From the NCBI GenBank assembly GCA_963783375.1, contig CAWANH010000029.1, positions 1,536,001-1,600,000 of the forward strand: a stretch of DNA of 64,000 nt, written 5' to 3'. Below are positions 28,293 through 61,234 of this stretch, one piece after another (position 1 is the first letter of the stretch; every line of letters begins with the position of its first letter). This stretch comes from Candidatus Eiseniibacteriota bacterium. Lineage in GTDB: Bacteria > Eisenbacteria > RBG-16-71-46 > JABDJR01. The notes under the pieces were generated by a model. The model was not told the origin of the DNA. It saw nothing but the letters and a program-made list of their open reading frames with translations, and made no database searches. The translations under genes were made by a program, and so were the position numbers.

Positions 28293-29233
28293 GCCTCGTC
28301 CGCCGTCTTTGCCGTCCGGCACCAGACGTTCATCGACTCCCAACCGTTGGGCATCCGGCAGTTGTTAACCAGCCGCCCGGTGTAGTCGTAGCCGAGCTTG
28401 GCGAAGGCGCAGTTCATCCCGACCTCGTCCGCCCGGGCCAGGGTGTAGAGGTCGATGATCCCCTCCTCGCGGGCCAGATCCTGTTCCAGGGCGCGGAGGA
28501 TCCACACCATGAGCCCGCGACCCCGCTCCGATGGCCGCGTCGCGCAATCGGTCATCTCCGCGTTTAGCCGGGCGCGATCGATCTCCGCCGAAGCCACCGC
28601 AGCCATCCGTCCCGACCCGTCCCGCACCCACCGGAACCGGTTGGAGCCGCTCTCGATCAGCCGGGCCAGGTGATCCGGCGCGAGGGAGGTGGGGTAGTCC
28701 GGAAAGACCGATCCCATGAGGGCGGCGATCTCGGCGGCGTCTCCGGGACGCGCCGGCTCGGAGCGATAGCCTTCGGGGAGACGGGGCGTCGCCGGTTCCT
28801 TGGAGCGGGCCACGTCCACCGCGCGCCGGTGCTCGTCCGCCCGAGGCTCCTCCGCCCGCGCCGGGTCGGTGTAGCGGGCCCAGAGAACCGCGTCCGCGCC
28901 GTCGGGAAAGTAGCCCCGGATGGTCCCCTCCTCGCGCCAGCCGGCTTGGATCCACAGGTCGCCGCTCCCCGGGCGGGCGTAGGCGGTGACCTTGGTGAAA
29001 CGCGTGGGATCCTCTCCCGCGCCGGCGATCAGCGCCTTCGGATCCAGCGCGTTCGCGTCCTCGGGGGCGAGACCGTACAGCTTGAGGCGCCGGTTACGGG
29101 GATCGAAAACCGCCTCGCGATGTCCCGAGGGGGCGTCGAAGCCCGCCTTCCACGGGGCCCCCGTCGAGGCCTCGGAGGCCGCCGCCCGACGGCCGGAGCC
29201 TGCCGCGGCAGCCTTTTCCCCGTTCCCGCTCAC
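28289..29233 (-). CDS. ablB: Putative beta-lysine N-acetyltransferase (GNAT)
   Basis: NAEMTDCAT.P..RG.GLM, YTLARA...GMN..F..LGY.Y.G.LVNNC...G.ESMNVW; coupled to a KamA-family gene. Confidence 0.85.
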   Translation of the reverse strand: MSGNGEKAAAAGSGRRAAASEASTGAPWKAGFDAPSGHREAVFDPRNRRLKLYGLAPEDANALDPKALIAGAGEDPTRFTKVTAYARPGSGDLWIQAGWREEGTIRGYFPDGADAVLWARYTDPARAEEPRADEHRRAVDVARSKEPATPRLPEGYRSEPARPGDAAEIAALMGSVFPDYPTSLAPDHLARLIESGSNRFRWVRDGSGRMAAVASAEIDRARLNAEMTDCATRPSERGRGLMVWILRALEQDLAREEGIIDLYTLARADEVGMNCAFAKLGYDYTGRLVNNCRMPNGWESMNVWCRTAKTADEA

Positions 29234-30717
29234 CGAACCGCGGGCTCCAGCTCTCCGAGACCGGCGGCATCGATCGCCTCACCCACGATCCGCCGGTGCT
29301 CGGCGGGATCCCCCCACCGGCGCCGTCCCTCCTCGGGGAGGAGATGGATGGGATCGAAGTAGAGGTAGACCTTCTCCGGATCCACGCTCGGGCTGCGGTA
29401 GACGCTCACCCCGGTGGTCCCGTCGTAGTGATCGTAGCTGTGCGCGTCGCGCTTCCCACCCCCGCCGGGCACGTCGGTCACGAAGGTGGGGGTGTTGAAC
29501 CCGGCGGTGGACCCCCGGACGTGGCGCTCCACTTCGAGAGTGTCGGCCAGCCGGGTCCGCAGATCCTCCACTCCCTTCACCATGTCGTGCTGGTAGACGT
29601 AGTAGGGCTGGACGTTGATATGGGAAAGCCGCTTCACCAGCAGGGTCATGGAAACCGGATCGTCGTTCACCCCGCGGATGCAGACGCTCTGGTTCCGCAC
29701 CTTCACCCCGCGCTTGAACAGCACGGTCATGGCCTCACGGGTGATGTCGGTGATCTCGCGGTGGCTGTTGAAGTGGGTGTGGAGCGCCACCTCCTTGGCC
29801 CGTTCCCGTCCGTAGCGGACCACGTCCACCAGGGCGTCGGTCCACGCCTTGTGGGTGAGAATCTTCATCGGCATCACCGCCGGGCCCTTGGTGGCGAAGC
29901 GGAGCCGCCGGATGTGGGGAATCGAGAGCAGGGTGCGGCCGATGTGCTTGAGCCGGGCCGGGGGAAGGTGATAGGCGTCGCCGCCGGAGATCACCACGTC
30001 CTCCACCTCCGGGCGCGAGGCCAGGTAGGCGAACGCCTTCTCCCACTGCTCCACCACCGGCTTGTAGTTCACCTTCTCCACCGTCCCGGTGTCGCCCCCG
30101 ATGGCGTAGCTCCGGGTGCAGAAGCGGCAGTAGACCGGGCAGACGTCGAGGGGCAGGAAGAGCGTCTTGTCCGGATAGCGATGCACCAGGCCCGGGGTCG
30201 GCGAATCGGCCTGCTCGTGAAGCGAGTCCAGGCTGAGCCGGGGGTGGTCCGGGCGCCGGGTCGAGGCCACCGGGATGAACTGGATCCGGAGCGGATCGGT
30301 GTAGGGGTTCTCCCAGTCGATCCGGCTGAGGACGTAGGGGGAGAGCCGCATGTTCATGGGGGCGAGCCGCATTCCCCGCTGCACGTCCTCCAGGAAGTCC
30401 TCGCTCACCAGGTCCTTCAACAACCCGGTGAGGGTCTGCACGTCGGTGACGCTCTGGCGGTTCTGGAACTTGTGGTCCAGGAACTCGCTTCGCGACACCT
30501 TCTCGAAGGCGGGGATACGCTTCCAGAAGTCGCCGGCGTCGAGGCGGCGGTGTTCGAGGTCGTCCTCGACCACCGGGGTCTTCTGGGCTTCGGGCACCTC
30601 GACCCCGGCCAGGGCCTCGAGTTCGGGAATTTGATGAATCTGGTCGAAGAGTTCGCCCACGGTGGTCGAGGGTTCCTCGACGGGCGCGCTCGCGGTCCCC
30701 GGGTTCGGTGTCTGCAT
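29230..30717 (-). CDS. ablA: Lysine 2,3-aminomutase (KamA-family radical SAM/PLP enzyme)
   Basis: GLVHRYPDK, CPVYCRFC (CxxxCxxC), VISGGD, THFN, NQSV, PYYVYQHD, DVPGGGGK (PLP lysine). Confidence 0.88.
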   Translation of the reverse strand: MQTPNPGTASAPVEEPSTTVGELFDQIHQIPELEALAGVEVPEAQKTPVVEDDLEHRRLDAGDFWKRIPAFEKVSRSEFLDHKFQNRQSVTDVQTLTGLLKDLVSEDFLEDVQRGMRLAPMNMRLSPYVLSRIDWENPYTDPLRIQFIPVASTRRPDHPRLSLDSLHEQADSPTPGLVHRYPDKTLFLPLDVCPVYCRFCTRSYAIGGDTGTVEKVNYKPVVEQWEKAFAYLASRPEVEDVVISGGDAYHLPPARLKHIGRTLLSIPHIRRLRFATKGPAVMPMKILTHKAWTDALVDVVRYGRERAKEVALHTHFNSHREITDITREAMTVLFKRGVKVRNQSVCIRGVNDDPVSMTLLVKRLSHINVQPYYVYQHDMVKGVEDLRTRLADTLEVERHVRGSTAGFNTPTFVTDVPGGGGKRDAHSYDHYDGTTGVSVYRSPSVDPEKVYLYFDPIHLLPEEGRRRWGDPAEHRRIVGEAIDAAGLGELEPAVR

Positions 30718-30813
30718 CGTCGGTCTCCTCTGTGGTCCAGAATCCCCTTCCCCGGAGGGTCGCCGATCGGGGCTCGAAGGGATTGGGTTGGGTAGGTCTT
30801 CCTCCCAATGGGT

Positions 30814-31341
30814 TCAGCTTGCGGCCGGTGGATCCTCGTCGATGGGCCGCGATTCCAGAATGGGAGCCACGGCCAGGTGGCCCGCCTCCATGAGATCCAC
30901 CACGCGCTCCAGGGAGCGGGCGATCGCCGTCCGCTCGGATTCCGGCAGGGCGCGCAGGGCCTCCGCGAATCTGTCTTGCAGGGGGGAGGGGGCGCGGTCG
31001 GCCAGCCGGCGCCCTTCCTCGGTGAGGGAAACGTGGACGAGACGGCGGTCGCGGACGCCGCGCTCCCGCCGCACCCAGCCCTTTTCCTCGAGGCGGTCGA
31101 GGATTCCCACCACCGTGCTCGGGCTCAGGACGAGGCGCCGGGCGATGGCGGTCGGGGTGAGCGGACCTTCGTCCCGGATTGCGAGAAGGCAGATGAGCTG
31201 GGGCGTGGTGATCCGGTAGGTCGCGGAGAGCTTCCGGGAGTGGATCTCCACCGAGTGGAGGATCCGCCGGAGAGCCCTGAGAATCCGGACATCCTGTCCC
31301 GAGGCTTCCTGCGCCTCGCGCGTGGGGCTTGAATTCTCCAT
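30814..31341 (-). CDS. MarR-family regulator, EctR/CosR-like
   Basis: ILRALRRIL..VEIHSRKL...ITTPQL, STVVGILDRLE.KG.V.R.R...DRR, APSPLQ.RF, APIL tail. Confidence 0.85.
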   Translation of the reverse strand: MENSSPTREAQEASGQDVRILRALRRILHSVEIHSRKLSATYRITTPQLICLLAIRDEGPLTPTAIARRLVLSPSTVVGILDRLEEKGWVRRERGVRDRRLVHVSLTEEGRRLADRAPSPLQDRFAEALRALPESERTAIARSLERVVDLMEAGHLAVAPILESRPIDEDPPAAS

Positions 31342-31483
31342 GTCACTTTCCCTCAACGGCTTCCCCGTTTCGACCCACCCGTTCCGAACCGGTGGTTTGG
31401 TCCCAGCGGTCCCGGGAGCGCGGGCCCTCGCCGCGCCCCACCCCTTCAGAAGTGCCTTGGAGCCAAGTTGTTCGAGCTGAAAT

Positions 31484-31513
31484 ATTTGTACCACGAATGA
31501 ATGCTCCCGTCAA
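31484..31513 (-). promoter_or_regulatory. sigma70-like promoter TTGACG-N17-TACAAA with an imperfect palindrome over the -10 (candidate MarR operator)
   Basis: Minus strand -35 at 31513-31508 and -10 at 31490-31485; palindrome ATTTGT-acc-ACGAAT at 31484-31498. Confidence 0.6.
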
Positions 31514-35828: not shown

Positions 35829-37895
35829 ATGAAGTCCCAGGACCCCGCCAATTCCCCCGGCCTGCTCCCCCCACCGGACGTGAACCCGCGGCGGGACCCG
35901 CCCCTGGACTTTCCCGACCGGGACCTGGGGAAGATGACCGCCGACGACTACCGCTCGCTGGGGTTCATGTCCGGCCTGGAGGTGCACCAGCAGCTCCGGA
36001 CCCGGACCAAGCTCTTCTGCCGTTGTCCCTCCGGCCGCTACGTGGACCACTACGACGCCGAAGTGCTCCGCCACATGCGCCCCACCCTGAGCGAGCTGGG
36101 CGAGTACGACGGCACCGCGCTCATGGAGTTCAAGACCCGCAAGGAAATCGTCTACCAGCTCGAGCGCAGCACGGTCTGCACCTATGAGATCGACGATACC
36201 CCCCCCTTCGTGATCGACGAGGAATCGATCCGGGTGGCGCTGGAGATTTCCCTCCTCTTCAACCTGAACCTGGTGAGCGAGATCCACGTCATGCGGAAGC
36301 AATACCTGGACGGGTCCATCCCCACCGGGTTCCAGCGGACGGCGATGATGGGCCTGGCCGGAACCGTCCCCTTCCGGGTCCCCGAGCTCGGGGTGGACCG
36401 GGAGCTCCGCATCCGGCAGCTCTCGTTGGAGGAGGACGCCTGCCGCGAGATCTCGGATGTCGGACACCGCGTCACCTTCCGCACCGATCGGTTGGGGATG
36501 CCGCTCACCGAGGTGGTCACCGAGCCGGAGATGCTCACCCCCTGGGAGCTCCAGGCGGGGGCGCGGCTCATCGCCCGGACCACCCGGGTGTCGGGAAAGG
36601 TCCGGCGGGGTCCCGGCGCCGCCCGCCAGGACGTGAACGTCTCGGTGGCCGGAGGTCGCCGGATCGAGATCAAGGGGGTGGACAGCCATCGCCGGCTCCC
36701 CCTCCTGGTCCACGTCGAGGCGTTCCGGCAGCTGAACCTGCTCCGGGTCCGGGCCGAGCTGCTCCGGCGCGGGGTGGACGGGACCGGCCTCGCCGTCCCC
36801 GACGGCGGCCGGGCGTGGGAAACCTCTCCCCTGGCGCTCGGCGCCGGTTCGATCCTGAAGCGCTCCGACTACGCGCCCCTCCGCGACGCCCTGGACCGCG
36901 GCGAGACCGCGGGGGCCATCCGCCTTCCCGGCTTCGCCGGGCTGCTCCTTCATCGCACCCAGCCCGGGGTGACCTTCGCCAACGAGCTGGCCGACCGTGT
37001 GCGGGTGGTCGCGTGCCTCACCTCGCGGCCCTTCATGATCCACTCCGACCTCGAAGGGTACGGGATCTCCCACGCGGAGTGGCGCCAGATCAGGACCGCC
37101 CTCAAGGCCGGCCCCGAAGACTCCATGGTGGTGGTGTGGGGACCGGAACGCGACGTGGACACCGCGCTCCGCGAGGTGGCGATCCGGGCCCGCGAGGCCG
37201 TGGACGGCATCCCTGCCGAGACCCGGCAGTCCTACCCCGACGGCACCACCGGCTTCGAGCGGATCCTCCCCGGGGCCGACCGGATGTACCCCGACACCGA
37301 CACCCCGCCCGTCCCCATCCCCGATCCCTGGGTGGAGGCGATCCGGCTCGCCGAGCGCCCCTGGGAACGGGAGGCCCGGTACCGGGCCCTGGGGCTCGCC
37401 GACGCGGCCGCGCGCCGGCTGGCCGGCGCGTCCTGGGCGGATCTCTTCGACGCCCTGGCCCCGTCGGAAGGGGCGATGGCGAGGCGGCTGGCGTCGGCGC
37501 TGGAGACGCGCCTTCCTCATCTCCGCCGCCGCGGTGCGCGCCTCCCCGACGCCGCGCGCCTGGCTCCCTTGATCGAAGCCCTCGCCGCCGGCACGGTCCG
37601 GATGGAAGCGGCGGAACGCGCGCTCGACCGGCTGGTCACCGAACCCGAGGTTCCCTCCGGGAGCGTGCTCGCCGCCTTCACCCCCGGGCCCGGGGACGCC
37701 GCGGAACTCGACGGCCTGGTGCGGCGGGCGGTGGAACGGTCCGCTCCGCTCCGCGGCAAGCCGCACGACGTCGTGCTTCGATGGGCGATGGGCGAGGTCA
37801 TGCCGTCGGTGATCGGCCGCGCCGACCCGGCCGCGGTGCGCGCCCGCCTCGAGGCCGCCCTGGCCCCGGTCATGGAGGATGCGAATCGTGGATGA
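35829..37895 (+). CDS. gatE: Glu-tRNA(Gln) amidotransferase subunit E (archaeal type)
   Basis: GLEVHQQL, KLFCRCP, MRPTLSELGEYD, RKQYLDGSIPTGFQRT, LEEDA, DRLGMPL.EV, RQDVNVS, IEIKGV, GAD-like insertion, PGADRMYPDTD. Confidence 0.92.
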   Translation: MKSQDPANSPGLLPPPDVNPRRDPPLDFPDRDLGKMTADDYRSLGFMSGLEVHQQLRTRTKLFCRCPSGRYVDHYDAEVLRHMRPTLSELGEYDGTALMEFKTRKEIVYQLERSTVCTYEIDDTPPFVIDEESIRVALEISLLFNLNLVSEIHVMRKQYLDGSIPTGFQRTAMMGLAGTVPFRVPELGVDRELRIRQLSLEEDACREISDVGHRVTFRTDRLGMPLTEVVTEPEMLTPWELQAGARLIARTTRVSGKVRRGPGAARQDVNVSVAGGRRIEIKGVDSHRRLPLLVHVEAFRQLNLLRVRAELLRRGVDGTGLAVPDGGRAWETSPLALGAGSILKRSDYAPLRDALDRGETAGAIRLPGFAGLLLHRTQPGVTFANELADRVRVVACLTSRPFMIHSDLEGYGISHAEWRQIRTALKAGPEDSMVVVWGPERDVDTALREVAIRAREAVDGIPAETRQSYPDGTTGFERILPGADRMYPDTDTPPVPIPDPWVEAIRLAERPWEREARYRALGLADAAARRLAGASWADLFDALAPSEGAMARRLASALETRLPHLRRRGARLPDAARLAPLIEALAAGTVRMEAAERALDRLVTEPEVPSGSVLAAFTPGPGDAAELDGLVRRAVERSAPLRGKPHDVVLRWAMGEVMPSVIGRADPAAVRARLEAALAPVMEDANRG

Positions 37896-39276
37896 CGACC
37901 GCTACAAGGGCTACCGCGAACCCACCCGGGGGGTCATGAAGCGACACGACGTGACGGTGTGGTCGATCGTGACCGCCCATACCACCCGCGGAGACTTCCG
38001 CGGGCTCGTGCTGCCCCGCTCCGAGACCTCGGACGCCGATCACCTGGTCCTCAAGTTGAACACCGGCTACAACGTGGGTCTCCGTCACGACACCATCACC
38101 GGATTCGAGATCGAGGGGTTCAAGGAAGCCCACTACAAGATCCCCGAGCAGGAGTTCCCGGTGAGCCCGGACAAGCCGTCGGTGAAGCTGTTCGGGACCG
38201 GGGGCACCATCGCCTCCCGGCTCGACTACCGGACCGGCGCGGTCATCCCCGCCTTCAGCCCCGGCGAACTCTACGGCTCGGTGCCGGAGCTGGCCGACAT
38301 CTGCAACCTGGAGACCGAGAAGCTGTTCGGGGTGTTCTCGGAGAACATGGGACCCGAGCAGTACCTGGTCCTGGCCGAGCGGGTCGGCGAGGCGATCCGC
38401 GAGGGCTTCGCGGGGGTGGTGGTCGGCCACGGCACCGACACCATGCACCACACCGCCGCCGCCCTGAGCTTCATGGTCCAGAACCCGCCGGTTCCGGTGG
38501 TCATGGTGGGAAGCCAGCGGTCCTCGGACCGGCCCTCGTCCGACGCGGCCCAGAACCTCATCAACGCCACCTGGGCCGCGGCCCGGGGAACGATCGCCGA
38601 GGTCATGGTCTGCATGTTCGGCCCCACCTCCGACCGCTACAACCTGCTCCACCGCGGCACCCGGGTCCGGAAGATGCACAGCTCCTACCGGAGCACCTTC
38701 CGCACCGTCGGAGACATCCCGCTGGCCATGGTGGAGGAAGGCCGGATCACCCCTCTCAAGACCGACTACGCACTCCGCCGCGACGACCGCGAGGCCCGGG
38801 TGCAGGCGGTGTTCGAGGAGCGGGTGACCCTCCTCTACTACTACCCCAACATGCAGCCCGACGTGATCGACGCCCTCATCGACAAGGGGTACAAGGGGAT
38901 CATCATCGCGGGCACCGGCCTCGGCCACGTGAACCGCAAGGTCTACCCGGCGCTGGAACGGGCGCGGGCGGCCGGAGTCCTGGTGTTCATGACCCTTCAG
39001 ACCCTGTGGGGTTTCGTGCAGATGCACGTCTACGAGACCGGGCGGGAGATCCTGGGGTTGGGGGTGGTGCCCCTGGCCAACATGCTCCCCGAGACCGCCT
39101 ACATCAAGCTGGGCTGGGCCCTGGGGATGCACCCGGACGATCCCGAGGCGGCGGCGCGGCTCATGACCACCCCCATCGCCTCGGACATGACCGAGCGCGA
39201 GCCCCACGACGGGTATCTCATCTTCCAGGGCGGGGTGCCGGAGATCCAGGAGTTCCTGGGAAAGATCTGGAAGTAG
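37888..39276 (+). CDS. gatD: Glu-tRNA(Gln) amidotransferase subunit D (archaeal type, asparaginase-like)
   Basis: GatD N-terminal domain (LKLNTGYNVG), TGGTIASRLDYRTGAV.P, HGTDT, GSQRSSDRPSSD, HRGTRVRKMHSS, GTGLGH; GTG 37888 with GGAGG, overlapping gatE. Confidence 0.93.
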   Translation: MDDDRYKGYREPTRGVMKRHDVTVWSIVTAHTTRGDFRGLVLPRSETSDADHLVLKLNTGYNVGLRHDTITGFEIEGFKEAHYKIPEQEFPVSPDKPSVKLFGTGGTIASRLDYRTGAVIPAFSPGELYGSVPELADICNLETEKLFGVFSENMGPEQYLVLAERVGEAIREGFAGVVVGHGTDTMHHTAAALSFMVQNPPVPVVMVGSQRSSDRPSSDAAQNLINATWAAARGTIAEVMVCMFGPTSDRYNLLHRGTRVRKMHSSYRSTFRTVGDIPLAMVEEGRITPLKTDYALRRDDREARVQAVFEERVTLLYYYPNMQPDVIDALIDKGYKGIIIAGTGLGHVNRKVYPALERARAAGVLVFMTLQTLWGFVQMHVYETGREILGLGVVPLANMLPETAYIKLGWALGMHPDDPEAAARLMTTPIASDMTEREPHDGYLIFQGGVPEIQEFLGKIWK

Positions 39277-39297
39277 GAACCGCGGCGGGAGCGGATC

Positions 39298-39972
39298 ATG
39301 CGCATTCTCCTGATCGAAGACGACGAGCCCACCCGATCGCTGATCCGGCGTTCCCTCACCGCCCGCGGGCACTCGGTCCAGGAGGCGGATCGCGCGGCGA
39401 CCGGCGACGACCTGGCCCGAAGCGAGGAGTTCGACGTTCTCATCATCGACATCCAGCTTCCGGACGGAGACGGCCTGGACATCTGCCGCCGGCTTCGCCG
39501 TGACGGGGTGAGCGTTCCCATCCTGTTCCTGACCGCCCGGGGGGAAGTGGGCGACCGGGTGGCCGGGCTGGACGCCGGGGCGGACGATTACCTCAGGAAG
39601 CCCTTCGCGCTCGCCGAACTCGACGCGCGGGTGCGCGCCCTGGGGCGCCGGCGGGGAGCCGCCCCCCCCGCGCGCATGGAAGCGGCCGGGCTGGAGATCG
39701 ACTTCACCGCTCGCGTCCTCCGCCGGGACGGCTCGGAAATCCCGATGACCGCCCGGGAGTGGCGGGTCCTGGAGATCCTCGCGTCCCGATCCGGGCGCGT
39801 GGTGCGCCGCGACGACCTGTTGTCCCTGGCCTGGGGGGACGCCGGTCCCTCGGCCTCGGAGAGCCTGGACGTGATCATGAGCCGGATCCGCCGGAAGCTG
39901 GGCCGGAAGGGCGCCGCGAGCCTCATTCGAACGGTCCGCGGCGAAGGGTACGTCCTGGAGGCCCGGGAATGA
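39298..39972 (+). CDS. OmpR-family response regulator
   Basis: ILLIEDD, phosphoacceptor D in IIDIQLP, LTAR, GADDYLRKPF, IRTVRG.GY. Confidence 0.93.
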   Translation: MRILLIEDDEPTRSLIRRSLTARGHSVQEADRAATGDDLARSEEFDVLIIDIQLPDGDGLDICRRLRRDGVSVPILFLTARGEVGDRVAGLDAGADDYLRKPFALAELDARVRALGRRRGAAPPARMEAAGLEIDFTARVLRRDGSEIPMTAREWRVLEILASRSGRVVRRDDLLSLAWGDAGPSASESLDVIMSRIRRKLGRKGAASLIRTVRGEGYVLEARE

Positions 39973-42824: not shown

Positions 42825-43873
42825 CCGGAGCGCCGCTCCGCCGGGACGCGCGCTCTCGCGCCGGGGGGGCGGGGAACGGAACCGCGCGGGCGCGGGGAAT
42901 CCTGGCCCTGGCGGCGATGGTGACCCTGGTCGGCTGCTCGGGGGGCGCCGGGCGGGCGGACTCCGAGACCTCCGGCGCGTCGAGCGGCCCGGCCGCCGCC
43001 ACCCCGGTCCGGGTGGGTGCGATCCGGCGCGACACCCTCCGGGTCACGGTGACCGCCCCCGGCCGGACCGTGGTCCTCCGGGAGGAGACGGTGCGGGCTC
43101 CCTTCGCCGGCACCCTCACCCGGCTCGCGGTGACCGACGGGGATCGGGTCTCCGCGGGTGAGGAGCTGGGGCGGCTGGTCTCCCGGAGTTCCGAGGCGGC
43201 CCTCGAGGGCGCCCGGGCCATGCTGGCCTCGGCGCGGACCGCCCAGGACTCCGCCGATGCCCGCGACGCCCTGGACCTGGCCCGGCGGGATTGGGTGGAG
43301 CGGACCCTCGAGGCTCCCGAAGCGGGGGTCGTCCTCTCCCACGCCGCGAGCCTTGGGGACCGGCTGGGCGAGGGGGACGAGATACTGCGGATCGCCGCCG
43401 ACGGCTCGGCGGTGTTCCGGGCCGACGTGTCCCAGAACGATCTGGCCCTGATCGCGCCCGACCAACCCGCCCGGGTGCGCCTGGCCGCCCGCTCCGACAC
43501 CCTCGGCGGGACCGTCCACGGCGTCCTCCCCGCCGCGAGCAGCTCCACCTTCAGCGCGCCGGTGCGGATCGACTTCCGCCGGGGACTGCCCGTTCCCGCG
43601 GAAGGGCTTTTCGGCACCGCGACCATCGTGGTCGGGGAGCGCGCCGGGGTTCTCTCCGTCCCGGTGGACGCGGTCCTGACCGACGACGTCACCGGCGTGT
43701 CCCGGATCGCCGTGGTGGACGGCGGAACCGCGCACTGGATTCCCGTCCGAACCGGGGTCCGGGATCGCGGCCGGGTCGAGATCACCGGCCGGGGCATCTC
43801 CGACGGCGCCCGGGTGATCGTGTCCGGACAGGTGGGTCTTCCCGACAGCTCCGCGGTCCGGATCGCCTCATGA
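42821..43873 (+). CDS. RND efflux periplasmic adaptor (lipoprotein)
   Basis: Lipobox LVGC; lipoyl-like V.APFAG......GD.V..G; VP.DAV, V.TG; ATGA overlaps at both ends. Confidence 0.88.
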   Translation: MTGAPLRRDARSRAGGAGNGTARARGILALAAMVTLVGCSGGAGRADSETSGASSGPAAATPVRVGAIRRDTLRVTVTAPGRTVVLREETVRAPFAGTLTRLAVTDGDRVSAGEELGRLVSRSSEAALEGARAMLASARTAQDSADARDALDLARRDWVERTLEAPEAGVVLSHAASLGDRLGEGDEILRIAADGSAVFRADVSQNDLALIAPDQPARVRLAARSDTLGGTVHGVLPAASSSTFSAPVRIDFRRGLPVPAEGLFGTATIVVGERAGVLSVPVDAVLTDDVTGVSRIAVVDGGTAHWIPVRTGVRDRGRVEITGRGISDGARVIVSGQVGLPDSSAVRIAS

Positions 43874-46800
43874 CCGCTCTCCAGTCGATCCGGCGACGGT
43901 GGGTCGCCATCTTCGCCCTGGTGATCGTCCTGGCCGGCGCGGGGGCCTACGTGATCCGCGGGCTCCCCTCGGCGATCTTTCCCTCGGTCACCTTCCCCAT
44001 CGTCAAGGTGATCGTCGACGTGGGCGAGGAGCCGGCGGCCCGCATGATGCCCACGGTGACCCGCCCCCTGGAGGAGGCGGTCCACCGCGTGCCGGGCATC
44101 CAGGTGGTGCGCTCCACCACCTCCCGGGGCTCCTCGGAGCTCAGCACCCAGTTCGCCTGGGGCACCGACATGAAGGTGGCGCTCCAGCGCGTGCAGTCGG
44201 AGACCCAGCGCATCCTCCCCGACCTCCCCCCCGACACCCGGATCGACGTGGAGTGGATGAACCCGGCCTCGTTCCCCATCCAGGGGTACGCGCTGACCTC
44301 GAAGACCCGGAGCCAGGCCGAACTCCTCCGCCTGGCCGAGTTCACCCTGAAGCCGGAGCTGATCCGCATTCCCGGGGTGTCCCGGGTCGAGATCCAGGGG
44401 GGGCGGAAACGCGAGTTCCAGGTGCGTCTCGATCCGGCCGCGGTGGAGGGGCGCGGTCTCTCGGTGGGGGACGTGGTGTCGGCGATCCAGGAGAACAACG
44501 ACGTTCTCTCGGCCGGGTTGACCGAGGAGAACCACGAACTCTACCTGACCCTGGTGGACGGCCGTTCCCACGGACTGGACGACCTCTCCCGGCTCGCGGT
44601 GCCGGTTCCCGGCGCCTCTCCGGCCACCCTGGCCGAGCTGGGTACCCTGGAGGTGGCGGACGAGGTTTCCTACATCCGGACCACCGCCGACGGCGACTCG
44701 GCGGTGCTGGTCAACCTCATCCGCCAGCCCTCGGCCAACACCGTGGCCATCGCCGACGGGGTGCGCCGGCTGTTCCGGGAGAGCCCGGATCTCCTCCCCC
44801 ACGATGTCCGCTGGACCACCTTCTACGACCAGGCCCGGTTCGTGGCGGCCTCGGTGAACGGAACCCGTGACGCCATCCTGATCGGGGTGGTCCTGGCCGC
44901 GCTGGTGCTCCTGGCGTTCCTCGGCAAGGTGCGGCTCACCCTGATCGCCGTCCTCACCATCCCCTTCACCGCGGCCATCGTGGGCCTGGCCCTGGGCGCC
45001 CTGGACCAGACCGTGAACCTCATGACCCTGGCCGGGGTGGCGGCGGCGATCGGGCTGATCGCCGACGACGCGATCGTGGTGGTGGAGATGATCGAGCACG
45101 AGGCCTCGGAGAACCCCCACGGGGACCCGGCCGAGCGGGGCCTGGACAAGATCCTCCCCGCCCTCATCGGCTCCAGCCTTTCCACCACCCTGATCCTCCT
45201 CCCCTTCGCGCTCCTGACCGGGGTGGTCGGCGCGTTCTTCCGGCCGCTGGCCCTGACCATGGCGGTGGCCCTCACGGTGTCGTTCTTCCTGGCCTGGCTC
45301 TGGGTTCCGGCGGCGGTGGGCCGCTTCGGCATCCGGCGGCGGCACCCGTCCGAGGCCCCGCCGGACGAACCGGCCGGCGGCGAGTCGGCGCCGGAGGCGC
45401 GGAAGCAGGCGCCGGAGGCCGGGTCCTTGCGCGCCCGGTGGCGGGCGATCACCGCGACCCTGTCCCGAGGCTACGACGGGGTGGCGGCCTTCCTGGTGGA
45501 CTATCCGCTGGTGGCCGCGCTGGTGATCCTGGGGCTGATCGCGGGCACCGCGTACACCTACCGCCACATCGGCACGGACTTTCTGCCGAGCATGGACGAG
45601 GGGTCGATCATTCTCGACTACTGGACCCCGCCCGGGACCTCCCTCACCGAGACCGACCGCATGCTCCGCGAAGCGGAAAAAGTCATCCAGGAGGTCCCCG
45701 ACGTCCAGAGTTACTCGCGTCGCACCGGGACCCAGCTCGGCTTCTTCATCACCGAGCCCAACTCGGGCGACTACGTGATCAACCTGAAGCCGCGGGGAAC
45801 CCGCCGCCCGGTGGACGAGGTGATCGACGATCTCCGGACCCGGATCGCCGCGGTGGAACCGGCCATCAGCACCGACTTCGGACAGCTCCTGGAGGACAAC
45901 ATCGGGGACCTCACCGGGGGCACCCCCCAGCCGATCGACGTGAAGATCTTCGGGAGCGATCTCCAGGTGCTCGAGGACAAGGCCCGCCGGGCCGCGGACA
46001 TCATTTCCGGGGTACCGGGGGTCGAGGACGTGTTCGACGGCATCACCATCGCCGGTCCCGCCCTGAACATCCGGGTCGACACCCAGGCCGCTGGCGCGCT
46101 ACGGGCTCACCACCCAGGACGTCTTCCGGGCCCTGGAGCCGGCGGTCAACGGAACGGTGGTGGACCGGGTCCGGGTGGGCGACCGGGTCTACGATCTTCG
46201 CGTCCTGGCGCGGGGGGACCACCCCCTTTCCGATCTCCGCATCCGGGCCAACGACCCGCCGTCGACCCTGGTGCCGCTCTCCGAGCTGGCCAAGATCACC
46301 ACCGGGCCGCCCGAGGCCGAGATCGACCGGGAGAACCTCCGCACCTACTTCGGCGTGACCGCCCGCCTCTCCGGCCGGAGCCTGGGGGCGGGGATCGCGG
46401 ACATCCGGCGCGAGCTGGCCCGAAAGCTCCAGCTCCCCGCCGGCATGTCCATCCAGTTCGGGGGTCTCTACCAGCAGCAGCAGGAGTCGTTCCGACTCCT
46501 GCTCTACGTGCTCCTGGCCGGGCTGGCCCTGGTGGCGGTGGTGCTGCTCTTCGAGTTCGGGGACTGGCGGGCGCCGCTGGTGACCGCGTTCTGCGCGGCG
46601 GCGGTCCTGGCCGGGGTGCTGGTGGCGCTCCTGGTGACCGGCACCACCCTCAACATCTCGAGCTACGTGGGGGCGATCATGATGGTGGGGATCGTGGGTG
46701 AGAACGCGATCTTCGTGATCCACGAGGCGCGGTTGCAGCTGGAATCGGGGCGGACGGTCCGCGAGGCCTGGCTCAACGCGTCCCATCGCCGGCTCCGCCC

Positions 46801-46996
46801 GGTGGCCATGACGGTGCTGGCCACCTCGCTGGCCCTCGCGCCGCTGGCGGTGGCCCTCGGCCAGGGCTCCCAGCTCATGCAGCCCCTGGCCATCGCGGTG
46901 ATCGGCGGGTTCGTGCTCTCGGGGCCGATCGTGCTCCTCCTCCTCCCCGCGCTCTACCGCTGGCTGGACCCCACCGGGAAGCTCGGGTCGGCGTAG
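43870..46996 (+). CDS. RND efflux permease (AcrB/CzcA-like); frameshift near 46090
   Basis: FP.VTFP.V, N.MTL.G.AAAIGLIADDAIVVVE, FLPSMDEG; continues in the 46157-46996 frame with GIVGENAI and RLRPVAMT. Confidence 0.88.
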
Positions 46997-55854: not shown

Positions 55855-58521
55855 TTATCGCCGGGCGAGCCCAGCCGTCCAGTTCACCACGATCGAGGTC
55901 GGGGACACCAGGCCATGCCGGCTGTTGTCGATCGCCAGGAAACGGTCTCCGTTCCCGTGCACGGCGTAATGATTGCGGTATCCGTCGGCCCCGGAGGCGA
56001 AGGGAGCGGTGAAGAGGGGCTTGGGAAGCCCCGGCCGGAAACCATCCCGGGTGTCCACCTCCACCACGGTCACGACGTTGGGGAGCGTCACGTAGAAGAG
56101 CTCGGTGCCGTCCGCGCTCCACTGGGGCTCGTTGGCGCCCTGGGTGGAAATCTGCCACTTGCCGGTCCCCTGGGGGAACGGCCGGACGTAGACCTGGCGA
56201 GTGCCGCTCTCGGTACTCACATAGGCGATCCACCGTCCGTCCGGAGAGACCGTGCCGTGTCCCTGGTCGAACTTCTCCCGGATCACCGGGAACGGCTTGG
56301 CGTCTCCGGTGAGCGGCACCGCCCACACGTCCCGCCCGGTCTCCCGGGAGTTGCGCCTCACGATCAGGTACTTTCCATCCCGGGTCACGCCGGTGAGGGA
56401 TTTTCCTACGCTGTCCTCCCAGACCGGGCTCGTATCTCCGGTTCCCGAAGCCTCACGGGAATAGATGTTGCCGACCCCGGCGCGCTCGGAGACGAAATAT
56501 ACCCGCGCCCCGTCCGCGGACCATATCGGCTCGTAGTCCCACTTGGGATCGAAGGTGAGGCGCGACTCGGTCCCCCGCTGGGTGTCGTAGACCCACACGT
56601 CGCCCGCGCCGCCCTCGTTCGATCGGTCCGCGGCCACCCGGGTGCCGTCCGGAGAGAGCGCCGGATCCCCCCAATCCGACTCCGTCGCCATGGTCTTCAG
56701 CGTGCGCCCCTCCCGGTCTACCCATGCCAGACGCGACACCCGCCCCCCCTGCTCGCGATAGGCGAGGATGCCGGCGTCGGACAGGGAGAAGTCCGCGAGG
56801 CCCTGGCCGTTCCCACCCACCTGTTCGGTGACCGGGAAGGACTCCCCGGTGAAGCGAAGCTCGTCCGGGTCGAACTGCCGGCCCAGAAGCGTGCCTTCCT
56901 GGGCCCAGAGGAGATAGCCCGAGGGCGTGTATTCCATACGAGTTCCCGCCGGACCCAGGGTCCGGGTCTCGAAGGAGCCGACCTCGGCCAGCTTGAGGCT
57001 GTCGGCGGTCCCACCCCCGTGCAAGGCCAGGTAGAGGAAGTGCTTGCCGTCGGGAAGGAAGTGCGGCCACGCGCTCCCGGTCTCCCCCGCCGCGTGGTCG
57101 ATCCGGGTCATCGGCTTGGGCATGCCGCCCGAGGCGGGCACCGCCCGGATCGAGTCGGTGCTGCTCCCATCGAAGATGATGAGGCCGCCCTCACCCCAGC
57201 TGTCGTCTGAACCCTGGACGCCGTCCAGGAGGGTCTGGGTCGCCCCTCCGCCCACGTCGATGCGCTTGAGCCGCGTCCCGGTGAAGAAGGCCAGCGACTT
57301 GGAATCCGGCGACCAGCAGGGGCGGGTCGCGCCCTCGGTGCCGGCCAGCGGGTGCGCGTCGAAGCTGTCCAGGGGCTGGATCCAGATTCGCGCGGTGCCG
57401 GTGGAGTCGGTGGCGTTGTAGGCCAGGTACTTCCCGTCCGGTGAGAGCTTGGGGGAGTCGATCGACACGACGCCGTGGGGGGCGGGGATCTGGTAGCGAA
57501 GCACCCGTGGCGCCGGGGGTTTGGGGCGCATGAGGTCGCGCGCTCCCAGGGCGATCACCCCCAGCCCGAGAACCGCGGCGGCGATCCAGGCGACCCGTTC
57601 CCGGCTCCGCCGCCGGTGGGCCACCGGCTTCGGCACCCCCGCCGCCGATCCACCCTCGGCGATCCACTGAAGCTGCAACGCGACGTCGTGCGCGGTCTGC
57701 CACCGCTTCTCCGGGTCCTTGTCCAGGCACACCCGCACCACCCGGTCGAGCGCCGGCGGCGCCATGGCCTGGAAGGTGGAGATCGGGGCCGGCTGATCCT
57801 TGAGAATCGAGGCGATCAGGGACGCCTGGCTGTTCCCCTGAAACGCCGGCTTCCCCGTGGCCATCTCGTAGAGCACGGCTCCCAGGGCGAAGATGTCGGT
57901 CCGGTTGTCCGCCTCCTTCCCCTCCAGCTGCTCCGGGGCCATGTACTGGAAGGTCCCCAGGATCGTCCCCTCCGCGGTGAGCGGCGTCCTCGGATTCCGC
58001 GACTCCGCCTTCATGGTCAGGGACGACGTGGGGGTTGCCGCCTCCACCCCCATCTTGGCCAGCCCGAAGTCCAGGAGCTTGGCCCCGCTCCGGGTAAGCA
58101 TGATGTTCCCCGGCTTCAGGTCCCGGTGCACCACCCCGCTCCGGTGGGCGGCGGACAGGGCCTCGGCGATCTGGACCCCGAGCCGGAGAACCTCGTCGGA
58201 CGAGAGGGGCTCCCCACCGAGCCGGTCCGCCAGGCTCTGCCCCTCCAGGAACTCCATCACCAGGAAGTCCACCCCGTCCTGGTGCCCCACGTCGTAGAGG
58301 GAGCAGATATGGGGGTGCGAGAGCGAGGAGATCGCCCGGGCCTCGCGCTCGAAGCGCTCCCGGAGCTCCGGGTTGGCCGAGAGGTGGCCGGGCAGCACCT
58401 TGATCGCCACCAGGCGGTCGAGACGCGTGTCCTTGGCGCGATACACCTCGCCCATGCCGCCGGCGCCGAGGGGTTCCAGGATCTCGTAGGGGCCCAATCG
58501 CAGGCCGGGGTTCAAGGGCAT
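55855..58521 (-). CDS. Ser/Thr protein kinase - TM - TolB/PD40 beta-propeller
   Basis: LGAGGMGEVY, VAIK, HRDLKPGN, DFGLAK, GTFQYMAPE; TM; multiple SPDG repeats. Confidence 0.93.
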   Translation of the reverse strand: MPLNPGLRLGPYEILEPLGAGGMGEVYRAKDTRLDRLVAIKVLPGHLSANPELRERFEREARAISSLSHPHICSLYDVGHQDGVDFLVMEFLEGQSLADRLGGEPLSSDEVLRLGVQIAEALSAAHRSGVVHRDLKPGNIMLTRSGAKLLDFGLAKMGVEAATPTSSLTMKAESRNPRTPLTAEGTILGTFQYMAPEQLEGKEADNRTDIFALGAVLYEMATGKPAFQGNSQASLIASILKDQPAPISTFQAMAPPALDRVVRVCLDKDPEKRWQTAHDVALQLQWIAEGGSAAGVPKPVAHRRRSRERVAWIAAAVLGLGVIALGARDLMRPKPPAPRVLRYQIPAPHGVVSIDSPKLSPDGKYLAYNATDSTGTARIWIQPLDSFDAHPLAGTEGATRPCWSPDSKSLAFFTGTRLKRIDVGGGATQTLLDGVQGSDDSWGEGGLIIFDGSSTDSIRAVPASGGMPKPMTRIDHAAGETGSAWPHFLPDGKHFLYLALHGGGTADSLKLAEVGSFETRTLGPAGTRMEYTPSGYLLWAQEGTLLGRQFDPDELRFTGESFPVTEQVGGNGQGLADFSLSDAGILAYREQGGRVSRLAWVDREGRTLKTMATESDWGDPALSPDGTRVAADRSNEGGAGDVWVYDTQRGTESRLTFDPKWDYEPIWSADGARVYFVSERAGVGNIYSREASGTGDTSPVWEDSVGKSLTGVTRDGKYLIVRRNSRETGRDVWAVPLTGDAKPFPVIREKFDQGHGTVSPDGRWIAYVSTESGTRQVYVRPFPQGTGKWQISTQGANEPQWSADGTELFYVTLPNVVTVVEVDTRDGFRPGLPKPLFTAPFASGADGYRNHYAVHGNGDRFLAIDNSRHGLVSPTSIVVNWTAGLARR

Positions 58522-58543
58522 CGGGGTCTCCTGTCGGATCGGG

Positions 58544-61212
58544 TCACCGCCGGGCGATCTCGGCCGCCCAGTTCACGATCAGCGTGGTGGGCTCGAGCGT
58601 CTCGGCGGAGTTGGGCGAGAGGAGAAGGAACCGGCTGCCGTCACCGAACACGGCGTAGCGATTCCTTCCGTTCGTGGATTGGGTCACGTTGGCGGGAAAG
58701 AGGCGCCGGGGTGTCCCGGCCTGGAATCCCGCTTCGGTCCGGACGGCCACGGCCATGAGGTTCCGGTTGGGATCCATGTAGTAGATCGTCTCTCCGTCGT
58801 TGCTCCACTGGGGTTCGTCCCCGCCGTCGGTCGAGACCTGCCACTTGCCCCCAGGTCCCGGGAAGGGCTGCACGTAGACCTGGTTGATCTGGCTCTCCCC
58901 GCTGACGTAGGCGACCCACTTCCCGTCCGGGGAGAACATCCCCCGGCCTTCGTAGAGGGGGGTCTGGACGAACGGGTACGGTTTCGCATCCCCCTCGACC
59001 GGAACCACCCAGAGGTCGTTGCCGGACTTCGGGTCCGAACGCTGAGCCAGGATGAACTTGCCGTCCGGCGACCACGAACTGGGATACTTGGACATGTCGT
59101 CATGCCAGAGCGAGACGGCATCGCCGGTTCCGCTCGCATCCTTCACGAAGAGGTCCCTCGGGCCGTCACGGTCCGAGGTGAAGACGATCCGTCGGCCGTC
59201 CGGCGACCACACCGGGAAGAAATCCTGCTTGGGGCTGAAGGTGAGCCGGGACGCCGTACCCCGGGTGGTCTCCAGGACCCAGGTATCGAAGGACGCGAGT
59301 TTGTCGTCCAGGATCGAGACCGCGATCCGGGTGCCGGTAGGATCGATCACCGGGGCCATGTAGGCGGCGGGCTTTCCCACGCTCCCCTGGGGTTTGCCCG
59401 CCGGATCCACCCAGACCAGGCGCTGGTTCTGCACCTCCCCTCGCCGGTAGGCCAGGATGCCGTTCCGGGAGAGCGAGAAGTCCGCCAGCCCGTAGGAGGT
59501 CGTGGTCACCGCCTCGGTCACCGGAAAGGGATCGCCCTTGAACGTCGCGGCCCCCGGGTCGAACCGGCGCGCCAGCAGCGTTCCGTCCTGGACGTAGAGC
59601 AGGTACCCCGGATCCGCAAACTCGATCCGGGAGTTTCCCGGCCCGATCACCTTGGTCTCGAAATTTCCCAACTCACCGACCTTGAGCGATCCCACCTTGG
59701 CGTCGGCGTAGTCCACCTGGAACACGAAGTGCTTGCCGTCGGGGAGGAAGTACGGCCAGCCGTCGGTTACCTCCTTCTGCGAGCGGTCGAGCCGGGTGGC
59801 GGGAGCGGGCACGCCACCGCCGGCGGGAACGCGCCGCAGGGAGTCGCCGGCCTGGGCGTCGAACAGGATCACCCCTTCCGAGCTCCAGGAACCGTCCGAT
59901 CCGTTCACGACGTCGGTCAGGGTCTGCACCGGCCCGCCGCCCACATCCACCCGTTTCAGGCGCCCCTCGGCGAAGAAGGCCAGGGATCGGGAATCCGGCG
60001 ACCAGAAGGGCCGGCGGGCGCCGTCGGTGCCGTCCAGGGGATGGGCGGTGAAGGCGTCCAGGGGTTGGACCCAGATCCGCGTCGTTCCGGTGGAGTCGGT
60101 ACCGTTGTAGGCCAGGTAGCGCCCGTTCGGCGAGAGCTTGGGCGAGTCCATGAAGGTGAGCTCGGGAGGCGTGCCGAGCTTGTATCGCAGGGTCTGGACG
60201 TCGGGGCGGCTTCGATGAGTGACCATGTACCCCAGCGCCCCCGACGCCACCACCGCGAACACCGCGGCCGCGATCCAGGCCGTCCGCTCCCGGCTCCGTC
60301 GCCGCTGCGCCACCGGCTTCGGCACCCCCGCCGCCGATCCCCCCTCCGCGATCCACTCCAGCTGCAGCGCCACGTCGTGCGCGGTCTGCCACCGCTCCTC
60401 CGGATCCTTCTTCAGGCACGTCCGACCACCCGGTCCAGCGCCGGCGGCGCCAGCGGCATCACCTGCGAGATCGGCGCCGGGCTCGCCGACATGATCGACG
60501 CGATCAGCGACGCCTGGCTCTTCCCCTCGAACGCCCGCCTCCCCGTCACCATCTCGTACAGCACCGCCCCCAGCGCGAAGATGTCCGTCCGCGCGTCCGC
60601 CTCCACCCCCTCCAGCTGCTCCGGCGCCATGTACTGGAACGTCCCCAGGATCGTCCCCTCCGCGGTCAGCGGCGTCCGCGGGTCCTGCGTCGGCGCCTTC
60701 ATGGTCAAGGACGACGACGACGGCGCCTCCGCCTCCACCCCCATCCGCGCCAGACCGAAGTCCAAGAGCTTCACCCCGCTCCGGGTCAGCATCACGTTCC
60801 CCGGCTTCAAGTCCCGGTGCACCACCCCGCTCCGGTGCGCCGCGGCCAGCGCCTCCGCCATCTGACGGCCGATCCGGAGCACGTCCTCCAGCGGCATGGG
60901 ACCCCCGGCCACCTTGTCGGCCAGGGTCTGCCCCTCCAGGTACTCCATCACCAGGAAGTCCGTGCCGTCCTCGTGACCCACGTCGTAGAGCGCGCAGATG
61001 TGGGGGTGGGTCAGGGACGAGATCGCCCGCGCCTCCCGGTCGAACCGCTGCCGGAGCTCCGGGTTGGCGGAAAGATGGGTGGGCAGGATCTTGATCGCCA
61101 CCGAGCGGTCCAGACGCGTGTCCTTGGCCCGGTAGACCTCACCCATCCCTCCCGCGCCGAGGGGTTCGAGGATCTCGTACGGGCCCAGGCGATGGCCGGG
61201 GTTCAACGGCAT
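58544..61212 (-). CDS. Ser/Thr protein kinase - TM - PD40 propeller; frameshift near 60423
   Basis: Kinase ORF 60412-61212 and propeller ORF 58544-60373 join if one base is restored (gtc [c]gg acg tgc gives RVVRTCLKK, matching paralog RVVRVCL). Confidence 0.88.
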
Positions 61213-61234
61213 GGCGGTTCCCTTCGGAGGACGG

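Follow-up and report, generated by a model that had tools for sequence, protein, structure and literature searches.

The two-subunit amidotransferase GatDE has been treated as exclusively archaeal (PMC2811023, from 2009; PMC8762117 and PMC9499178, from 2022), and the consulted sections of the two later papers call it an archaeal signature protein. In the history of the amide codons that these reviews outline, bacteria never had GatDE, or lost it. Here we describe a gatE-gatD pair from a bacterium. It lies in a window (the whole stretch of DNA that was analysed, 64,000 nucleotides) from Candidatus Eiseniibacteriota bacterium, assembly GCA_963783375.1, contig CAWANH010000029.1, positions 1,536,001 to 1,600,000. 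The original prediction, made from the letters of this window, proposed an intact archaeal-type operon through which the lineage might charge tRNA-Gln in the archaeal way. We find that the pair is genuine and belongs to a large bacterial clade, and that the evidence does not place the locus in the archaeal pathway to Gln-tRNA. We tentatively propose that it serves the cell as a source of asparagine, with aspartate as the substrate of amidation and Asp-tRNA(Asn) as its most probable carrier, a reading to which we assign a probability of roughly 0.4.

The bacterial pair agrees with the archaeal enzymes of known structure (1ZQ1, 2D6F) in domain order and fold and in the residues that bind Mg or form the Thr-Lys-Asp set, and it likewise has the N-terminal domain of GatD and the insertion domain of GatE. 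It differs in its host, a bacterium with glutaminyl-tRNA synthetase (GlnRS) and a U1-A72 tRNA-Gln; in its gene order, which is E then D whereas most adjacent archaeal pairs run D then E; and in the RKQYLDGSIP motif, invariant in the bacterial clade, where archaea have RKxVxDGSN. The insertion and tail motifs of the bacterial proteins are eroded, GatD carries a C-terminal extension, and the clade stands apart in both the GatE and the GatD tree. A second comparison is offered by GatCAB of Bdellovibrio and S. aureus, which, according to the consulted part of PMC4206432, likewise looks redundant beside direct synthetases in organisms with no AsnA or AsnB, and for which a role in making asparagine on tRNA was proposed; in Bdellovibrio it is kept beside GlnRS and asparaginyl-tRNA synthetase (AsnRS) for asparagine synthesis. 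GatCAB combines an amidase-family GatA with a GatB that has no insertion domain and reads U1-A72 through a 3-10 turn, in contrast to the asparaginase-family GatD and the shorter GatE-type loop found here. The asparagine synthetases AsnA and AsnB possibly share a product with GatDE and have a near-complementary distribution in Bacteroidales, but their folds are unrelated. AsnA and AsnB activate aspartate by adenylation, whereas GatE uses phosphorylation.

Results

By every protein-level test the window pair is a true GatD and GatE, neither GatB nor asparaginase. The overlapping genes that had been predicted are present as open reading frames (ORFs) that pass curated models, and all six motifs named for them (TGGTIAS, HGTDT, RKMHSS, GLEVHQQL, GFQRT and RQDVNVS) occur in the translations. 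The genes and protein parts are as follows.

35829..37895, + strand: gatE, 688 amino acids, kinase/amidotransferase subunit with cradle, insertion and helical domains and a YqeY-like tail
36882..37169, + strand: GatE insertion (GAD-like) domain, residues ~352-447, placed by alignment to 1ZQ1/2D6F; Pfam GAD under its cut-off (19.8 bits against 23.4)
37659..37868, + strand: GatE YqeY-like tail, residues ~611-680, a weak Pfam GatB_Yqey match
37879..39276, + strand: gatD, 465 amino acids, glutaminase/asparaginase subunit, overlapping the end of gatE
37993..38097, + strand: GatD N-terminal domain, residues 39-73, Pfam PF18195 at 40.6 bits (cut-off 25.7)

GatE scored 479.9 bits against NF003107 (cut-off 456) and 406 against TIGR00134 (cut-off 319.55), and remained far under the cut-offs of all GatB models (for TIGR00133, 103.5 against 314.8); GatD passed TIGR02153 (483.9, cut-off 324) and NF003217 (477.9, cut-off 310). 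By sequence, the top relatives in the Protein Data Bank are 1ZQ1 from P. abyssi and 2D6F from M. thermautotrophicus. GatE was also modelled with AlphaFold on a 50-row alignment (predicted local distance difference score 90.6); this model found 1ZQ1_C as its first fold match, and chains of 1ZQ1 and 2D6F ranked ahead of GatB chains. Both accessory domains that had been predicted were recovered: the N-terminal domain of GatD, which plain type I asparaginases do not have, and the GatE insertion, whose modelled fold shows a weak likeness to chains of aspartyl-tRNA synthetase (AspRS). The helical and tail domains of GatE were also modelled confidently. In phylogenies GatE splits from GatB with a support of 100 in three trees. 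GatE residues H53, E201 and E228, invariant in 102/102 bacterial sequences, align to H15, E157 and E184 of M. thermautotrophicus GatE, which are described as Mg ligands (PMC2330236). Similarly, GatD residues T110, T186, D187 and K265 are invariant in all 74 bacterial and all 32 archaeal GatD sequences compared. The ATG at 37879 comes directly after a GGAGG at 37874, so that the true start of gatD may instead be the GTG at 37888; a sequence search revealed no convincing promoter or terminator at gatE-gatD.

A locus that was misassembled, or recently inserted from an archaeon, would agree with the archaeal identity of the best solved-structure matches, but we find this explanation barely credible. 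The contig that holds the window is 1.7 Mb long and even in GC, and it comes from a 4.7 Mb genome that is 97% complete. In a scan of 4 of 64 parts of the collection, the best named matches to the ribosomal protein L1 of this genome were from Ca. Eisenbacteria, at 63-67%, and the host probably belongs in or near this phylum. The GC content at third codon positions is host-like, as had been predicted (0.919 for gatE and 0.942 for gatD, compared to 0.805-0.927 in 11 neighbours). The gatE-gatD pair and the downstream response regulator and kinase genes recur in the genus relatives G001 and G003, and the upstream gene of 137 amino acids recurs in a third relative, G004. In read run X1, which may be the source sample, one contig continues from gatD into the following gene (38754-39597); contigs from four read runs are shorter than the operon. 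The nearest homologues are bacterial, with identities of up to 93%. The chimeric contig piece that the original prediction had itself raised is refuted by these homologues and by the matching gene neighbourhood of the relatives, and the operon is a long-resident, host-like one.

The operon is not peculiar to a single lineage but belongs to a very large clade of bacterial loci. In species-representative genomes, the 80 best loci are spread over Gemmatimonadota, Eisenbacteria, Krumholzibacteria, Acidobacteriota, Aminicenantes, Myxococcota, Calditrichota, Ignavibacteria, Planctomycetes and many Bacteroidales, and no archaeon is named among their record titles. The clade spans more than ten phyla, and GC across the 80 loci ranges from 32 to 74%. 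gatD follows gatE in 70 of them; among the remaining ten, six stop at the edge of their contig. A scan for a motif common to both domains, covering 1 of 64 parts, returned 120 of an estimated ~12,000 stretches; GatE is encoded by 119 of these (32 bacterial, 87 archaeal), and extrapolation suggests roughly 3,000 bacterial carriers. The motif RKQYLDGSIP[TA]GFQR is common to all 32 bacterial sequences. Among 41 genomes sampled from the kin of the host, GatD exceeded its cut-off in nine, the host included, and 57 of 121 genomes from the order of one Bacteroidales carrier have GatE-type matches. In viral contigs we found no real GatD, only one 24% fragment. As anticipated, homologues are already annotated, and NCBI and JGI label many such bacterial proteins GatE. 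We found no report on bacterial GatDE in the open-access literature, nor in PMC13433404 (2026), and the clade is apparently unreported despite these labels.

Conservation within the clade is uneven: identity to the query is ~59-89% for GatD and 38-78% for GatE, and the C-terminus of GatD is an extension specific to the bacterial clade. The stronger conservation of GatD and its extension could indicate that the enzyme amidates something else, such as a small molecule, a peptide or a carrier, or that it is mainly a regulated asparaginase/glutaminase. We consider this quite improbable, since gatD is the only neighbour of gatE to be conserved throughout the clade (the next largest cluster covers 13/81 loci) and the kinase residues are all invariant.

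The deeper history of the clade was approached with trees of 77, 76, 38 and 40 rows, a diverse subset having been picked manually for each. With GatB as outgroup, bacterial GatE forms one clade (98, 99, 99/96) outside canonical archaeal GatE. The first archaeal sample had been chosen by a motif that excluded intermediate forms, which a less biased motif later revealed. These are the Asgard-like loci L425 (Jordarchaeales), L381 and L400, which share with the bacterial clade the E-then-D order and an RKxYLDGS motif (RKNYLDGS in these loci). They differ in keeping archaeal KGVQ, HSDE and tail features, and in being the sole GatE found in genomes without a GlnRS match; they are probably ordinary glutamate amidotransferases. 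Their GatE is unplaced under a mixture model and groups with archaea under LG+G4 (98/96), while an approximately unbiased (AU) test on 38 rows under LG+G4 does not reject a clade of bacterial and Asgard-like GatE (p-AU 0.115). In the GatD tree two of the three loci group with bacteria (99/99), with an outgroup too long for the root to be reliable. The closest archaeal kin of the bacterial clade is Asgard-like, and bacterial-type GatE also occurs in two Thermoplasmatota. The original prediction had left a choice between old acquisition and deep inheritance. Long residence and host-like composition bear out the age, while the trees choose neither origin. We lean slightly towards an ancient transfer whose donor was an archaeon related to Asgard; that the clade was instead inherited from the universal ancestor we rate a little below an even chance.

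Several individual loci deserve mention. In the Jordarchaeales genome G219, an Asgard-type gatE-gatD pair in E-then-D arrangement (L583:16420-19793) has an in-frame TAG inside gatE and lies ~11 kb from gatA-gatB on the same contig. At L094:328-402 (+ strand), ARAGORN predicts a tRNA with anticodon UUA, which would read UAA, with an A1-A72 mismatch and an encoded CCA. It lies 67 bases before an ORF containing a bacterial gatE that branches deeply and has no gatD next to it, and is possibly a dedicated or suppressor tRNA. Some GatE proteins of DPANN archaea (L371, L388, L398, L413, L419 and similar) are ~470-500 amino acids long and apparently have no insertion domain.

The host genome argues against an archaeal route to glutamine. 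It encodes a bacterial gltX, the gene of glutamyl-tRNA synthetase (GluRS), followed directly by glnS (TIGR00440, 726 against a cut-off of 425.8), then by tRNA-Gln(CUG) and tRNA-Glu. Its sole GluRS is of bacterial type (TIGR00464, 439 against 290; archaeal models far under cut-off) and not of archaeal type, discrimination itself not being readable from sequence. gatC-gatA-gatB is present elsewhere on the same contig, AspRS and AsnRS (asnS) are encoded as well, and so is a type I glutamine synthetase (glnA). Archaeal tRNA identity had also been raised as a possibility, but both tRNA-Gln genes, like tRNA-Asn, start with U1-A72, and no A1-U72 was found in tRNA-Gln. With glnS, gltX and gatCAB present, the archaeal glutamine route is not needed here, and the tRNA signature of that route is absent; with glnA in addition, GatDE is not needed for Gln-tRNA in this genome. 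GatDE as a substitute for a missing glutamine synthetase is likewise ruled out in this genome by the type I glnA. Two near-equal-scoring glnA copies lie on different contigs (C28:828689-829690 and C25:5219-6220), possibly an assembly duplication. Within the kin sample glnS was found in 8/9 GatD-positive genomes and AsnRS likewise in 8/9, the 75% complete G007 lacking a match both times. A further 50 carriers were selected among the 80 best loci for the length of their contigs, with completeness not given; GatB is missing in 39 of these, and at least two class Ib synthetase matches occur in 42.

It is conceivable that GatDE still acts as a Glu-tRNA(Gln) amidotransferase, either as backup or repair for leaky mischarging by GluRS or as a second route when free glutamine is scarce. 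All characterised GatDE enzymes are glutamate-specific as far as the consulted sections of PMC1635274 and PMC2330236 describe them, and the GluRS-docking insertion domain is retained. glnS lies in the fetched flanks of gatED in four of the 80 loci (L040, L041, L042 and L049; L040 also has a divergent adjacent gltX), and in the Asgard-like genomes the E-then-D type is the only GatE found, with no second class Ib synthetase found. In the Thermoplasmatota genome G220 (L501:327-2090, L505, L511, L392), a bacterial-type GatE is the sole GatB/E-family gene found and occurs with an archaeal GluRS and an A1-U72 tRNA-Gln. A GlnRS over cut-off was also found there, on a short contig of uncertain binning; archaea are said to lack GlnRS in the part of PMC9499178 consulted. 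These observations are set against others that make such a backup unlikely, though far from negligible. The host has both GlnRS and glutamine synthetase. In a comparison that 60/118 GluRS genes entered, no GluRS column differs by more than 0.38 in frequency between 31 carriers and 29 others, and the arginine at the anticodon position, which we take to have a role there, is invariant in both groups. Archaeal GatDE reads A1-U72 and is poor on bacterial Glu-tRNA(Gln) (PMC2330236, PMC2943598, in the sections consulted), and the equivalents of Q285 and I265 near the acceptor stem are replaced. Nor does a backup predict the complementarity with AsnA and AsnB described below.

Since GlnRS covers glutamine, the working role of GatDE would be asparagine supply. 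In the host genome we found no AsnA and no E. coli-type AsnB (best identity 32%); of six longer AsnB-family paralogues, the two tested pass TIGR01536 and fail the E. coli-type equivalog. The 121 Bacteroidales-order genomes divide into 52 with GatE only, five with GatE and GatB, three with GatB only and 61 with neither. In this sample GatE carriers are poor in asparagine synthetases: AsnA was found in 9/57 carriers and 34/64 non-carriers, E. coli-type AsnB in 5/57 and 38/64, and either of them in 13/57 and 47/64. Both are missing in 44/57 carriers and 17/64 non-carriers, and for these 17, in which GatDE, AsnA and E. coli-type AsnB are all missing, the median genome size is 2.6 Mb vs 3.9. Among the 76 genomes of at least 3.3 Mb, a threshold picked after the data were seen, 33 have GatE only, 33 a synthetase only, nine both and one neither. 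Across 100 of the Bacteroidales-order genomes we counted 19 changes of GatE state on an AspRS tree, and independent pairs ran in the predicted direction in 2.6 cases vs 0.1, of 8.

The protein sequences carry a second line of evidence. Mean pairwise identity in the GatE cradle is 0.69 in bacteria and 0.51 in archaea, compared to 0.37 and 0.40 in the insertion, 0.25 and 0.26 in the helical domain and 0.23 and 0.31 in the tail; the sets (102 bacterial, 75 archaeal GatE) are unequal in depth, so only the ratios inform. In the bacterial clade the HxDELPxYG insertion motif of archaea is eroded, and the archaeal-invariant Q285 and I265 equivalents in the acceptor-stem region are replaced, while the GatE-type short loop is kept at the first-base-pair site. 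The tail motif of GxxAxG type, which PMC2811023 (consulted in part) links to rejection of Asp-tRNA(Asn), reads GRADP in the host and is of GNV type in Bacteroidota; its final-position G is present in 77% of archaeal rows. Y159 and D484 of the host GatE are common to GatB, with V as the archaeal residue at Y159. Judged from sequence, these patterns suggest a hard-working active site with altered tRNA recognition, and the changed tail motif and Y159 may count for a reading of Asp-tRNA(Asn). The tail itself is kept in 97/102 bacterial GatE, and of the five short sequences four stop at the edge of a contig; this retention of the tail speaks for a tRNA as substrate.

Discussion

We favour amidation of aspartate on Asp-tRNA(Asn) because these amidotransferases ignore the anticodon, bacterial tRNA-Asn and tRNA-Gln both have U1-A72 (PMC1635274 for both points, in the part consulted), GatE largely excludes GatB as well as AsnA and AsnB, and GatCAB provides a precedent. 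By analogy with the archaeal enzyme, GatD would free ammonia from glutamine or asparagine (T110; T186-D187-K265), and a tunnel would carry the ammonia from GatD to GatE. At GatE (H53, E201, E228) the side-chain carboxyl would be activated by phosphorylation with ATP/Mg, and amidation would follow as a second step.

Such a role would call for a mischarged Asp-tRNA(Asn), and the AspRS and GluRS comparisons do not show which mischarged tRNA exists. The AspRS of the host has the motif RDHGG, as in the non-discriminating enzyme of P. aeruginosa, where T. thermophilus has RDLGG; the genome also carries GatCAB. We take the His of this motif and a downstream Gly to be marks of relaxed specificity, for which the literature searched gave no source. 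None of 100 Bacteroidales AspRS sequences has the His, and eight GatB carriers are also without it, which makes the test weak. Over all AspRS columns, in a comparison entered by 100/118 genes, the largest frequency difference between carriers and others is 0.57, with no carrier-specific change.

Alternatively, GatDE could have evolved from a tRNA amidotransferase into a tRNA-independent, kinase-type third asparagine synthetase, in which GatE phosphorylates free aspartate, GatD gives ammonia and the asparagine feeds AsnRS. The same complementarity with AsnA and AsnB and the AsnRS found in 8/9 GatD-positive kin genomes agree with this scheme, as do the absence of carrier-specific change in AspRS or GluRS and a cradle more conserved, and a tail less conserved, than in archaea. 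It would also account for the coexistence of GatCAB and GatDE in the host. A single convergent case can be added: in G163 a divergent asnA-like gene (L576:9020-10153; 282.6 bits, just under cut-off) lies beside gatD and converges on it. On the other hand, the helical and tail domains are full length in 97/102 sequences and modelled confidently, archaeal GatD is inactive without Glu-tRNA(Gln) (PMC2330236, in the part consulted), and the literature consulted yielded no precedent. We rate amidation of free aspartate as rather improbable.

Several observations weigh against the proposed synthesis of asparagine on tRNA. The comparison of independent pairs falls short of significance (median p 0.25), and shared ancestry or lifestyle may therefore explain the asparagine pattern. 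When the broad AsnB family TIGR01536 is counted, carriers and non-carriers differ only weakly (28/57 and 40/64), and the host's own paralogues that pass this model could make asparagine. At two anticodon-domain positions the AspRS of 42 GatE-only Bacteroidales and of 50 that are free of GatE and GatB are alike. Archaeal GatDE does not associate with a non-discriminating AspRS, for which the insertion domain is blamed (PMC2943598, in the sections consulted), and this domain is retained in the host GatE. The host genome and four relatives keep GatCAB alongside GatDE, a coexistence that a role on tRNA leaves unexplained. Finally, the gene set of G220, with its archaeal GluRS and A1-U72 tRNA-Gln, fits a glutamate role.

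The surroundings of the operon contain a number of other features. The Gram-negative setting of TolC/RND type that had been predicted was found, as an OEP/HlyD/RND set among the neighbours of gatE-gatD. An RND transporter ORF (window 43873-46996) covers profile positions 5-727 of 1021, then has an unrelated-looking end with another ORF after it, and probably reflects a frameshift or assembly error. At window 55855-63898 (- strand), three propeller ORFs lie in a row: the outer two are full Ser/Thr kinase-PD40 propeller genes, and the middle one has no kinase part and is possibly split. A KamA-family radical SAM aminomutase-like gene (window 29230-31494, - strand), under every specific subfamily cut-off, adjoins a MarR regulator. 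An ARAGORN tRNA-Pro at window 28935-29028, without CCA and with an odd acceptor stem, is probably false. Elsewhere the genome has a selenocysteine tRNA (tRNA-SeC).

The window locus is itself one ordinary clade member. The clade to which it belongs accounts for about a quarter of GatE loci in species representatives and is present in about half of the sampled Bacteroidales-order genomes, which breaks the archaea-only rule. It makes testable whether the last universal ancestor had both amidotransferases, and on what basis glutamate and aspartate specificity rest. If the asparagine role is true, GatDE would close a biosynthetic gap in many environmental bacteria, and the automatic 'Glu-tRNA(Gln) amidotransferase' labels on these proteins would be wrong. 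Should GatDE instead be a synthetase acting on free aspartate, it would be the asparagine source for thousands of bacterial species that resemble auxotrophs.

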